Shown here one piece after another: positions 32,616 to 38,375 of a DNA stretch of 64,000 nucleotides (the first letter of the stretch is position 1; the number at the start of each line of letters is the position of its first letter). The notes beneath the pieces were generated by a model. It searched no databases, was not told the origin of the DNA, and saw only the letters and a list, made by a program, of their open reading frames with translations. Where the stretch lies: the NCBI GenBank assembly GCA_017525035.1, contig JAFXTH010000005.1, forward strand, positions 25-64,024, in the 5' to 3' direction. Position numbers and translations under genes: made by a program. The stretch is from Bacilli bacterium (GTDB taxonomy: Bacteria; Bacillota_I; Bacilli_A; RF39; UBA660).

Positions 32616-32638
32616 TCTTTCAAAGGCTGTTTTTTTTT
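32614..32638 (+). terminator. Weak terminator (short hairpin plus T9)
   Basis: agtcttt-c-aaaggct imperfect hairpin followed by gttttttttt. Confidence 0.45.
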
Positions 32639-32646
32639 GATATAAT
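32638..32646 (+). promoter_or_regulatory. Extended -10 promoter element (TGaTATAAT) for the WXG-like cassette operon
   Basis: TGATATAAT 36 nt upstream of ATG 32682. No other promoter-like gap occurs until 38375. Confidence 0.5.
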
Positions 32647-32681
32647 AAAATGTAGTATACAATTAAGATAGGAGTGAGAAT

Positions 32682-33596
32682 ATGGCTGGAGAAATAATAT
32701 ACAATTCAGATGAAATATATGAAGCACAAGGCATATTAGATACAACAGCAAAGATATTTAGCGATGACATGAAAAAGTCTCTAGCAAGTAATTTCGATTC
32801 CTTAACTGCAGTTGGATATACTGGAATAAATAAATTACAAAAACAAACTGATGAATTAATTAACAATCATAATTCTTTTAAAGAAGAACTAAAAGAACAT
32901 GATGATAATAGAATTGAGCTTGAAAAAACACTTGATGAAACAATTAAGTTAAAACTTGAAAACAAGCAATATGAAGAAGTAGAAGATAATGCTAATACTC
33001 ATGAATTAGCTGAAGTTGAATTAGAAGCAGTAGATGAAGGACAAGAAATAAATACAGCATTATTAACAGAAGCTGTAAGAGAGTTCTCATATTCTAGCAA
33101 AGTATCAATATTAAAAAACATTTTAAAATTGGATACTGGATCAATTAGTGCATTATTAACAGATCCTAAAGAATCAAATATCTTAGTATATGAAATTAAA
33201 CAGATGCTAAATGACAATACATCTAGTATGTCAACAACAGCTACAGATGAAGAAAAAGAAGTTCAAAAAGAATTTATTAAAGCTTTAGCAAATGAAAAAG
33301 AAGATATTTTTAGAGAAATAGAGGATGATACTTACTTAAGAGGTATGCCATATTACAAGAAAATATCTGGATTAAATGGAATAAATATTGAAGATTTAAT
33401 ATTAGATGAAAAAAATAGTAAGTTATTAACAAATTGCGTTAAGTTTATATGCGACCATAACGCTGTAGGCGGAATGAATGCAAGTGATATTGATGCAGTA
33501 AAAGCTTATGTTAAAGGCGTTGCAGAGAAAAATAAAATGTCTGTTGATACTTTACTTACAAGTGCAAATGCCCAACTATTAAGAAGGGGTGTGTAG
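32682..33596 (+). CDS. Cassette A gene 1: ~304 aa all-helical protein with a WXG/LXG-like N-terminal hairpin
   Basis: RBS AGGAGTGA. No signal peptide or TM. N-terminal helix-turn-helix (..FDSLTAVGYTGINKLQKQ..). Positional and architectural paralogue of 35607..36512. Confidence 0.6.
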   Translation: MAGEIIYNSDEIYEAQGILDTTAKIFSDDMKKSLASNFDSLTAVGYTGINKLQKQTDELINNHNSFKEELKEHDDNRIELEKTLDETIKLKLENKQYEEVEDNANTHELAEVELEAVDEGQEINTALLTEAVREFSYSSKVSILKNILKLDTGSISALLTDPKESNILVYEIKQMLNDNTSSMSTTATDEEKEVQKEFIKALANEKEDIFREIEDDTYLRGMPYYKKISGLNGINIEDLILDEKNSKLLTNCVKFICDHNAVGGMNASDIDAVKAYVKGVAEKNKMSVDTLLTSANAQLLRRGV

Positions 33597-33597
33597 T

Positions 33598-33903
33598 ATG
33601 AAGTTACAAGTAAAGTATGAAGAGTTGTATAGCTTAGGTACAGAAATAGAAAAGAAAAAAGAAGAAATCGATGGAATATTAAACAATATTGATAAACTAA
33701 TTGATGATGTATCAAGCGGATGGTCTGGTAAAGACAGTGAAACTTTTATAAGCAATACAAAAGAAAAAATAGCAAATGAAAAAGATAGAAACAAGAAAAT
33801 AAAACTTGTAAGTGATTCATTAAAATATGCAGCAAAGAATTACAAGACTGATGATGAAGATGCTCTCGACTATTTCAAGAGGGGGGATGCAAATAATGAA
33901 TAA
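33598..33903 (+). CDS. Cassette A gene 2: WXG100-like small helical protein
   Basis: 101 aa. W-S-G at 33721..33729 (DDVSSGWSGKDSETF) in the middle of two predicted helices. Y-K-T-D-D near the C-terminus. ATG 33598 follows GAAGGGG. Confidence 0.7.
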   Translation: MKLQVKYEELYSLGTEIEKKKEEIDGILNNIDKLIDDVSSGWSGKDSETFISNTKEKIANEKDRNKKIKLVSDSLKYAAKNYKTDDEDALDYFKRGDANNE

Positions 33904-36512: not shown

Positions 36513-36521
36513 GAGGCACTT

Positions 36522-36854
36522 ATGATTTTTAAAGTAGATTATAATCGTGTAGATAAAATAGGAAAAGATGTTTTAACAGAAGTAAAAACACTTGAAGAAA
36601 AAAGAAAGGAATTATTAAGCATATTAGAAGAGATGAATAATAGTTGGTCTGGTTCTGACTATGATGAATTCAAAGAAAATGCCAAAACATATATAGATAA
36701 TTTAAAAATAAAATTTGAAGAATTAGAGTATATGGCAGGATTCATGAGTTATGCTTCTAATAGATATTCAAATAATGATACACAATGGGCCGATAAACTT
36801 AAAGAATATAGAGATATTGATAAAATGAAGAAGGATGATAAATATGTCAGTTAG
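36522..36854 (+). CDS. Cassette B gene 2: WXG100-like small helical protein
   Basis: 110 aa. W-S-G at 36645..36653 (EEMNNSWSGSDYDEF). Y-S-N-N-D at 36765..36779. RBS AGGAGG. Confidence 0.7.
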   Translation: MIFKVDYNRVDKIGKDVLTEVKTLEEKRKELLSILEEMNNSWSGSDYDEFKENAKTYIDNLKIKFEELEYMAGFMSYASNRYSNNDTQWADKLKEYRDIDKMKKDDKYVS

Positions 36855-37170
36855 AAATCAAATAAAAGAAGTATCATTTGAAGAAGCAAAAAATAGGTTT
36901 ATCGCAGTATCAAAAGACATTGAAGACTCATTAAAGAAAATAGAATCACTAATGGAACCAATCGATGGTAACAATGAAACATGGACTGGTAAAACATCTA
37001 AAGTAGTATATGAGAAGTATATTGAATTTAAAAATGATTTCCCTGATATTAATTCAAAATTAGAAGATTTTGGAAGTCATTTAAACGCAACACTAGATAA
37101 TTATAGAAATGCAATGGCAAAGAGTGAAAGAACTATTGAAGCTCAAGCTGATAATTATAATGTTGGATAA
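36844..37170 (+). CDS. Cassette B gene 3: WXG100-like small helical protein
   Basis: 108 aa. DGNNETWTGKTSKVVYEKY (W-T-G). ATG 36844 follows GAAGAAGGA. Overlaps gene 2 by 11 nt. Confidence 0.65.
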   Translation: MSVRNQIKEVSFEEAKNRFIAVSKDIEDSLKKIESLMEPIDGNNETWTGKTSKVVYEKYIEFKNDFPDINSKLEDFGSHLNATLDNYRNAMAKSERTIEAQADNYNVG

Positions 37171-37190
37171 AAAGATAGAAGGAGGCATAT

Positions 37191-38375
37191 ATGGCAACAT
37201 ATTTTATAGATCCTTATAAAAAGTATTATGATGCTTTGAATGGTAAAACAGATTTACCAGCACAAGCAGAAGCTCTAGCAGCTAAAGCGGGTGAAGCGGC
37301 AAGTAGTATTAGTAGTATATCTTCTGCTGTTTCTTCATCAAACTGGCAAGAAAAAGGTGCATCTGAGCTAAATTCAACTACACTTGCAAACTTAAAGGGT
37401 GGTATTGAAACAATTGAAAATAATATTAATAGCTCATTAAAAGAAGCATGTACTATTGCCATAGGCAGTATGCTTCCAGAACTAGAATCATTAAAGACTG
37501 AGGATGAAAACTATGAAAATATAACAAAAGAATTAGATAGTTTAGTAATTCCTACACGTTATGATGAAGAAGGACATGAGACAAGTGCTTATATAGAATA
37601 TAAGAGTAATAAAAATAGATTATCTTATCAACAAAGCCAGTCTAAGAGTAAATGTGTACAATATCAAAACAATGTTAATAATTACGCAAGTCAAGTTAAA
37701 GCAAAAGATGGAGCATTAGAAGAAATTAAGCAAATTGTAGTGACATCAAGTGGATCACAAACTCTTACTGTACTTGACTATGATGCAAATAGTAAATTAG
37801 TTAAAGTATCATATGGTGGTAGAGAATTCTATGTTGTTAATACAAAAACATCAGTTATTGAATATGAACAATATGTTCAAAAAAATGGTATAAATCAAAA
37901 CTCTGGATTGCTTGGTAGTGAATGTATGTTACTTTCACAATATTATGCAGTTGACCTATTAAGAGGAACATTTACAAGTAAGAGTACAATGGCTGCTCTA
38001 CAAGGTGGACCAGCAGGAAGAATTAGTGACTATGTTAAGTCACCAAATCAAGAACCAGTACTAGAGTATATATATAATGAAGCATTAGCAGGAAGACCAA
38101 CAGTATTGCAAGTATCACAAGTTAATTCATATAAAGGATGGAGACACTTGGTTACAGTTGTTGGATTCTCATCAGATGTTAAAAGTTATAAAGATCTAAC
38201 TCCAGATAATATCTTGGTTCTAGACTGTGTTGATGGAAAAATTCAAACACTAGGACAATCAAGAGCATCAGGAGGACATGAACGTAGATTATTTGCACAA
38301 GGTGGTAACTACTTTGCAAGAGGTGCATCAGATAATTTCTTAAGTAAAGAAGTATATACTACGCAAAATGCATAA
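37191..38375 (+). CDS. Cassette B gene 4: helical LXG-like N-terminal domain plus C-terminal papain-like Cys-His-Asp domain (paralogue of 34234..35595)
   Basis: 394 aa. RBS AAGGAGG. N-terminus YFIDPYKKYYDAL...SNWQEKGASEL. C-terminus GSECMLLSQYY (Cys245), WRHLVTVVGF (His319), LVLDCVDG (Asp345/348). Confidence 0.65.
   Translation: MATYFIDPYKKYYDALNGKTDLPAQAEALAAKAGEAASSISSISSAVSSSNWQEKGASELNSTTLANLKGGIETIENNINSSLKEACTIAIGSMLPELESLKTEDENYENITKELDSLVIPTRYDEEGHETSAYIEYKSNKNRLSYQQSQSKSKCVQYQNNVNNYASQVKAKDGALEEIKQIVVTSSGSQTLTVLDYDANSKLVKVSYGGREFYVVNTKTSVIEYEQYVQKNGINQNSGLLGSECMLLSQYYAVDLLRGTFTSKSTMAALQGGPAGRISDYVKSPNQEPVLEYIYNEALAGRPTVLQVSQVNSYKGWRHLVTVVGFSSDVKSYKDLTPDNILVLDCVDGKIQTLGQSRASGGHERRLFAQGGNYFARGASDNFLSKEVYTTQNA

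Follow-up and report, generated by a model that had tools for sequence, protein, structure and literature searches.

The window analysed here, that is, the whole 64,000-nucleotide stretch of contig JAFXTH010000005.1 from the Bacilli bacterium assembly GCA_017525035.1, carries two tandem, diverged copies of a four-gene cassette at 32682-38375. Each copy encodes a helical protein of about 300 residues (gene 1: g1 and g5), two small WXG100-type proteins (gene 2: g2 and g6; gene 3: g3 and g7) and a large protein ending in a papain-like domain (gene 4: g4 and g8). We consider it probable, though by no means assured, that these cassettes belong with the LXG/Lap type of effector module, being associated with WXG100 proteins and devoid of signal peptides, and that they export a papain-like wall hydrolase via a type VII secretion system (T7SS).

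Both large proteins, g4 (34234-35595, + strand, 453 residues) and g8 (37191-38375, + strand, 394 residues), begin with a domain of the same family, here called the N-domain. In g4 it takes up residues 1-160 (nucleotides 34234-34713), and the AlphaFold (AF2) model of the protein, with an overall predicted local distance difference test score (pLDDT) of 76.5, shows N-domain helices at residues 7-18, 23-46, 52-117 and 123-152, a turn at W49-x-E51 (W52-x-E in g8), and a disordered linker (residues 162-266) leading into an alpha/beta C-terminal domain (C-domain). An earlier note, made from the sequence alone, had picked out the N-terminal motifs Y..YK.YYD.L and W-x-E; these are real and conserved among 38 full-length homologues, in which E51 never changes and Y9, Y12 and W49 hardly ever do. 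The same note had proposed an uncharacterised N-terminal domain in the large proteins, which holds, since no Pfam or NCBIfam model covers the N-terminus of g4 or g8 and the region is helical in the model. A profile of residues 1-160 was compared with 1.84 billion cluster representatives at a cut-off of E 1e-3 or less and recovered 193 proteins; the listed matches are about 320 to 3014 residues long, and in almost all of them the domain starts at residue 1. A Pfam scan of 91 of the N-domain proteins identified Peptidase_C39_2 in 18, M90 and C70 in three each and C39 in two, along with Glucosaminidase (E 1e-31), PIG-L, GDSL lipase and ATLF payloads, and found no other N-terminal Pfam family; the domain also heads proteins of 1400-4329 residues, giants of 3000-4300 among them. 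Because the N-domain sits at residue 1 and is fused to many different payloads, it bears the signature of a polymorphic effector, and it may be described as a small unannotated family that seems to behave as a trafficking- or targeting-like domain.

The C-domain of g4 (residues ~270-453, nucleotides 35041-35592) is modelled as a confident alpha/beta fold, with pLDDT mostly above 90. Its catalytic-type residues are C320 (35191), R390-H391 (35404) and D417 (35482), those of g8 are C245 (37923), R318-H319 (38145) and D345 (38223), and the order Cys, His, Asp is kept in both. A search with the g4 and g8 alignment returned 139 unnamed proteins from metagenomes and metagenome-assembled genomes (MAGs), and C320, R390-H391, D417 and D420 do not vary in any of the 38 full-length homologues that were aligned. 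Peptidase_C39_2 is matched by 33 of these 38 at E of 0.01 or less (best 2.7e-7) and Amidase_6 by five, and the best C39_2 match among other N-domain proteins reaches E 5e-19. For the g4 model, the best Foldseek matches in the PDB are papain-like, namely BpJOS (9f5t, a Josephin-like clippase, E 1e-2), IdeS/IdeC/Mac-1 and AvrPphB, none of them at E 1e-3 or less. The invariant residues, the C39_2 matches of the homologues and the model together uphold the Cys-His-Asp peptidase-like C-terminus that had been read from the sequence.

Relatives of the C-domain outside the cassettes have extracytoplasmic or wall-related settings. Among those 43-49% identical to the C-domain of g4, some carry a Sec signal peptide and two SH3_3 domains (related loci L019, L021 and L022), others lie behind N-terminal transmembrane anchors (L018, L020 and L026, the last with a surface Ig-like domain), and one occurs with Peptidase_M23 in a large Saccharibacteria/Nanosyncoccaceae protein (L024). 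Because these relatives are extracytoplasmic, we infer that g4 and g8 must also be exported, and that the helical N-domain and the WXG100-like partners form the export device, since they are the only candidate. Peptidase_C39_2 is one of the lytic domains catalogued for the endolysins of phages that infect Gram-positive bacteria (PMC8223927). The payload of g4 and g8 is most probably an extracellular papain-like peptidase, to judge from its relatives one that acts on the bacterial cell wall, and this role as a wall hydrolase goes beyond what the earlier note had foreseen. A further relative in the 43-49% range is the C39_2-like protein of an operon in L017 (7260-12878), where it is encoded together with NlpC/P60-Amidase_5-like and phage-tail-lysozyme-like proteins. 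None of the three has a signal peptide, and the NlpC/P60-like one has a W-Q-G in its own N-terminus; next come three genes of WXG100-like type and, convergent to them, one of the FemAB family. FemAB-type modification of the cross-bridge is a known immunity route for lysostaphin.

The four small proteins had been called WXG100-like from their size and turns, and comparison with the Pfam WXG100 model PF06013 points the same way: g2 (33598-33903, + strand, 101 residues) and g7 (36844-37170, + strand, 108 residues) score 42.0 and 32.0 bits, above the gathering score of 27.3, and g6 (36522-36854, + strand, 110 residues) and g3 (33896-34219, + strand, 107 residues) lie just under it at 25.7 and 24.6. 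All four stay under the TIGR03930 cut-off of 44.85, with g2 at 42.1; g3 and g7 also match YwqH-like proteins weakly, and a hidden Markov model (HMM) scan gave no match to DUF3130 or DUF3958 among the small partner proteins. Their helix-turn-helix size is accompanied by the turns W-S-G (g2, g6), W-T-G (g7) and W-K-S (g3, without the G), and the turn W is nearly invariant among 29 family members. After helix 2, a YxxxD/E motif is present in 15 of 16 gene-2-type and 10 of 15 gene-3-type proteins from related loci, and in the window it reads Y-K-T-D-D at the end of helix 2 in g2 and Y-S-N-N-D in g6. The gene-3-type proteins have a conserved tail at their extreme C-terminus, of the form D.N.DNLDIN, which appears as ..D.N.D.LNIN in g3 and is conserved in g7. 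In the LXG systems, an FxxxD close to where helix 2 of Lap1 ends is needed for LXG export and has been likened to the export arm, YxxxD/E, that mycobacterial substrates carry (PMC9600955).

Gene 1 is represented in the window by g1 (32682-33596, + strand, 304 residues) and its paralogue g5 (35607-36512, + strand, 301 residues), the first genes of cassettes 1 and 2, and across the family its products measure ~240-430 residues. The g1 protein is acidic, has neither transmembrane segment nor signal peptide, and is modelled with low confidence (pLDDT 63.5): residues 10-93 form an N-terminal helical hairpin, 95-122 a linker without order and 125-302 a C-domain that is again helical. Neither g1 nor g5 has a match in Pfam or NCBIfam, the g1 family has none in the PDB and the model no structural neighbour; homologue searches, hampered by low-complexity words, gave 6 and 9 matches only, and comparison with the N-domain by hhalign was not significant. 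In L005, a 549-residue protein fuses a full gene-1-like region to a C39 domain, and in L013-L016 the C39 domain sits on a gene-1-like N-terminus and is followed by an N-domain protein with another C-terminus. We considered gene 1 as the immunity protein of a preceding toxin and rejected this, because every cassette has it ahead of the WXG pair, even a first cassette with no toxin upstream, and because it is fused to the peptidase itself in some genomes; these fusions indicate a second carrier or partner instead. The extra gene-1 partner proposed earlier has thus turned out to be a conserved component across related loci, and gene 1 is the first gene of a four-component module with swappable payload carriers.

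This module order was assessed by local BLAST and HMM searches across the related loci that were fetched. The succession of a gene-1-like gene, two WXG genes and an N-domain effector is present twice in the window and twice in L006, and also in L005, L007, L008 and L009, in the second unit of L016, in two units of L029 (one with an ATLF-like payload, the other with a 3014-residue protein) and in three units of L032-L035, where the effector of one unit is a 4329-residue protein. Two small partners stand directly upstream of the effector in the window, L005-L009, L013-L016, L029 and L032. As a side observation, the L032 (83-20756) and L029 (4803-19045) cassettes are grouped into arrays, two or three to each, which lie around dnaB-like (DnaB_2) genes or downstream of them and end in giant N-domain proteins of 3014-4329 residues without a Pfam domain, and the ~200-residue genes after some of their effectors could be immunity genes.

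Within the window, the two units are paralogous gene for gene. By BLASTP, g1 and g5 are 21% identical over 306 residues (E 1e-11), g2 and g6 27% (E 2e-7), and g3 and g7 34% (E 2e-15), and in g4 and g8 the C-domains are 35% (E 2e-25) and the N-domains 22% identical (E 2e-6), in line with the two diverged units of identical architecture described before; no cassette-family members beyond the eight were found within the 64 kb. Both units have orthologues at 51-75% identity in a second species (L006), so the duplicated pattern is more than chance, and we propose an ancient duplication retained in at least two species. All eight open reading frames (ORFs) are co-directional on the + strand and lack hydrophobic segments (maximum KD19 1.06 or less), and all eight proteins are acidic. 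Start codons were refined by ribosome-binding sites; for g5 the ATG at 35607 has a GGAGG in front of it, which makes the GTG at 35595 an unlikely start. The second and third genes overlap in each unit, by 8 nucleotides in g2/g3 and by 11 in g6/g7. A single sigma-70-type promoter with a TG-extended -10 element (TTCAAA-16-TG-TATAAT, 32619-32646, + strand) precedes the block and overlaps a weak hairpin and T-run that ends the upstream small-membrane-protein gene. No terminator-like site was seen on the + strand inside the block, and the downstream boundary is set by the infC promoter (TTGACT-17-TATAAT, 38390-38418, + strand), with the first such site 3' of g8 being the hairpin and T-run of the infC leader (38528-38562). 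The earlier picture of eight co-directional genes behind one TATAAT element, without internal terminator, is thereby retained.

The order gpr, spoIIP, three small membrane proteins, cassette(s), infC, rpmI, rplT, rpsB is kept in L006, L007 and L008, with two cassettes in L006 and one each in L007 and L008, and the placement between sporulation genes and the infC operon, seen beforehand in the window, is thus shared by further genomes. When the window is compared with L006, identity is 51-75% for the cassette proteins, 69-91% for the gpr/spoIIP genes upstream and comEC downstream, and 87-98% for the five translation-related genes just downstream (infC, rplT, rpsB and the genes at 41110-41991 and 42115-43254); the cassette diverges faster than the translation genes and roughly as fast as the rest of its flanks. 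Judged from gene order and sequence, the locus is a fixed, vertically inherited core-site feature of a clade, which had not been anticipated. The hosts are rumen and gut MAGs labelled Bacilli, Erysipelotrichaceae, Clostridium sp. or Tenericutes, with a GC content of about 25-33%. A phage or plasmid origin was rejected: plasmids and IMG/VR viral contigs held no family match and PHROGs nothing, and a single short match to a phage record covers 75 residues (17% of g4) at 36% identity.

The gene order, the family matches, the conserved motifs, the modular fusions and the extracytoplasmic layout of C-domain relatives are all seen in the data. From the make-up of the cassettes, and by analogy with LXG/Lap systems, we infer a dependence on a T7SS as well as the complex, substrate and target that follow. 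The four soluble, acidic, helical proteins of a cassette would assemble in the cytoplasm as an elongated helical pre-secretion complex, made up of the N-terminal hairpin of gene 1, the WXG100-like hairpins of genes 2 and 3 and the ~160-residue N-domain of gene 4. Gene 2's YxxxD/E, placed where helix 2 ends, and the conserved C-terminal tail of gene 3 may together provide a composite export signal for recognition by an EssC/FtsK-like ATPase of the type VII kind, whose gene would lie at another place in the genome, in a manner of targeting that would mirror the action of Lap1/Lap2 on LXG toxins. The papain-like Cys-His-Asp cargo would then work extracellularly, in all probability cleaving peptides of the peptidoglycan or the cell envelope, and its target would more likely be neighbouring bacteria than the producer. 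With two cassettes, there would be two diverged enzymes and a matched partner set for either one.

Several observations weigh against this scenario. The earlier note had called the cassettes WXG100/LXG-like, and for LXG this was not borne out by sequence or structure matches: g4 and g8 have no match to LXG (PF04740) at E of 1 or less, none is listed among the 38 full-length homologues and 91 other N-domain proteins, and Foldseek finds no LXG structure. With the full g4 model it returned weak BAR/IncA-like matches for the helical part, and sequence and profile relatives of the g4 family in the PDB were set aside as coiled-coil noise only. Profile-profile comparisons with the WXG100-like set by hhalign, at 3% and 10% probability, fall short of significance; the N-domain is the one at 3%, with the W residues aligning, and g1 against the same set was likewise not significant. 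The N-domain therefore may be said to resemble LXG by architecture, as an analogy, with shared ancestry lacking profile support. At the level of single motifs, g3 and g7 lack the acidic D/E of YxxxD/E, and g4 scores 23.2 bits against Peptidase_C39_2 (gathering score 24), g8 alone giving no match. Vertical inheritance at a fixed core position is unlike typical polymorphic-toxin islands. There is also no immunity gene after g4, after g8 or after the single cassettes of L007 and L008, as the earlier note had observed for the window: g4 is followed by g5 after 11 nucleotides, g8 by the infC promoter, and the L007 and L008 effectors lie directly before infC.

The machinery itself is the last of these points. 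The 64-kb window holds no EssC/FtsK-like ATPase and its ORFs of 200 residues or more no Walker A motif ([AG]xxxxGK[ST]), and the only ORF above 1000 residues (10386-14195) has no family match. An FtsK/EssC-like multi-P-loop ORF is likewise absent from 45 related loci (up to ~29 kb), and an FtsK/EssC-like ORF from the 10 kb beyond the window; a metagenome scan with a five-sequence alignment gave eight loci, none with machinery. FtsK_SpoIIIE, YukD and YukC are not listed in loci with precomputed annotation, and no systematic search was made for YukD, EssB and EsaA. These absences hold within about 10 kb of the cassettes and should not be read as applying to whole genomes. The effector loci of a T7SS often lie far from its machinery, and in Bacillus subtilis the LXG loci are dispersed over sites apart from yuk. 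Of the earlier claim that an EssC-like gene is missing within 64 kb and that this is unusual, the absence therefore stands, by the Walker A and ORF surveys, and the second part does not, because LXG loci are so often remote. Several T7SS variants exist in Bacillota (PMC11217815).

The lack of immunity genes and the fixed position bear on an explanation that keeps the same export logic and takes the enzyme for a housekeeping autolysin, remodelling the wall of the producer in cell separation, sporulation or germination. Neither g4, g8 nor their orthologues have an immunity gene beside them, the gpr-spoIIP...infC position common to the window, L006, L007 and L008 implies vertical inheritance, plasmids and IMG/VR contributed no matches and phage records one short partial match, and spoIIP itself encodes a wall hydrolase. 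However, other cassettes are located at sites with no relation to this one, following dnaB-like genes in L029, L032 and L036, and come with toxin-like payloads and giant proteins. The cassette proteins are also less conserved than the downstream translation-related genes, diverged duplicates were kept, and the promoter is sigma-A-like and not of the sporulation type. We regard an autolysin as unlikely, though deserving serious attention, and continue to favour exported effectors of the LXG/Lap type. A more radical possibility, which we find improbable, is a clade without an EssC/EccC ATPase, in which the hairpins, the gene-1 protein and the N-domain would constitute a self-sufficient or otherwise undescribed route, or build an export or surface structure of their own. 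It draws on the absence of an FtsK/EssC-like ATPase next to any of the separate cassette settings looked at, within the window itself and in the adjoining 10 kb; but this absence covers only about 10 kb around the cassettes, effector loci being so commonly remote, and WXG100 proteins with YxxxD/E are a hallmark of EssC/EccC-dependent export. Were it true, the route would move folded wall hydrolases and proteins of 3000-4300 residues across a Gram-positive membrane.

Least of all do we expect a cytoplasmic, non-secreted complex, with a protease held by helical adaptors in conflict or abortive infection, or else a lysis module derived from a phage. A weak match of g4 to the effector-associated domain EAD9 (24.9 bits) and the occurrence of C39_2 in endolysins speak for it, but EAD9 is matched by only 2 of the 38 members, and inside the coiled coil. 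PHROGs gave nothing, viral and plasmid relatives are absent besides the one 75-residue match, no phage genes flank the locus, and the relatives of the C-domain are Sec-exported.

If the favoured reading as exported effectors is correct, the type VII export logic of an LXG protein with two Lap partners would gain a new targeting domain and a conserved component that is its fourth, and an extracellular papain-like wall hydrolase without an immunity gene would join the range of exported payloads. The N-domain, with 193 representatives, and the gene-1 family are without a Pfam or NCBIfam model and could be defined as new families, in a group of uncultured low-GC gut and rumen Bacillota to which the family is confined and whose biology is almost unknown. 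That the hydrolase domain is common to episymbiotic Saccharibacteria points to cell-wall attack as a shared currency in gut and rumen communities. On a separate note, C39_2-like domains of 42-48% identity end Saccharibacteria/Nanosyncoccaceae proteins of 920-1308 residues in L024 (2666-10495) and L025 (1733-10531), one of them with Peptidase_M23, and their presence in these candidate phyla radiation (CPR) bacteria suggests an exchange of wall-lytic domains between rumen/gut Bacillota and episymbiotic CPR bacteria.

Further features of the window were seen in passing. The infC leader (38390-38580) has the look of an L20-type attenuator, with no Rfam family at gathering score (an Rfam search over 28000-42000 found nothing), and infC itself probably starts not with an ATG but with the ATA near 38578 that follows a GGAGG. 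The products of rplT (39326-39928; L20, 200 residues) and rpsB (40017-41090; S2, 357 residues) have long Lys/Ala/Glu-rich C-terminal extensions that are conserved in L005-L008. Adjacent ORFs at 7998-14195 encode 789 residues, with an N-terminal hydrophobic segment and a weak HYR/OmpL47-type match, and 1269 residues, with no match; both may be surface proteins, and unannotated ORFs of similar size occur in L029 (1287 residues) and L015 (1172 residues). A possible tandem paralogue array lies just past frr (RRF), at 62553-64000 and on into L044 (10001-15076): six co-directional genes in succession, with products of 259-291 residues and no Pfam match.

Among known systems, the closest in layout are the LXG proteins with Lap1 (DUF3130) and Lap2 (DUF3958) of the T7SSb, such as TelC and TelD of Streptococcus intermedius or YwqH-YwqI-YwqJ of Bacillus subtilis. 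As in these, two genes for helical hairpins of ~100 residues lie directly upstream of a large protein, whose first ~160-200 residues are elongated and helical and whose C-terminus is a variable enzyme; one small partner carries F/YxxxD near the end of helix 2, signal peptides are absent, and the N-domain is reused with many payloads. In contrast to the LXG/Lap systems, the cassettes have no PF04740, DUF3130 or DUF3958 matches and their partners match WXG100/YwqH-like families, the turn of the hairpin is W-x-E-x-G and not L-x-G, and a gene-1 partner of ~240-430 residues is added which is able to become a payload carrier. In addition, the window is without an immunity gene, the chromosomal position is a fixed core one, and the machinery is not in the searched regions.

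A second likeness is to EsaD of Staphylococcus aureus, whose gene belongs to the ess locus. This nuclease comes with an immunity protein of its own, and its export needs several small helical partners and a larger accessory protein (PMC10653861); EsaD with EsaE, EsxB, EsxC and EsxD resembles the cassettes in joining a large effector to partners of these kinds. The cassettes differ from it in having no sequence relationship to it, a papain-like hydrolase as payload and no machinery near their locus. With the C39_2 (PF13529) endolysins and SH3-anchored wall hydrolases, finally, g4 and g8 share the papain-like Cys-His-Asp domain, whose relatives at 43-49% identity are those with Sec signals and SH3_3. 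Unlike the SH3-anchored hydrolases, g4 and g8 have a helical, WXG-associated N-domain that replaces both the signal peptide and the wall-binding module.

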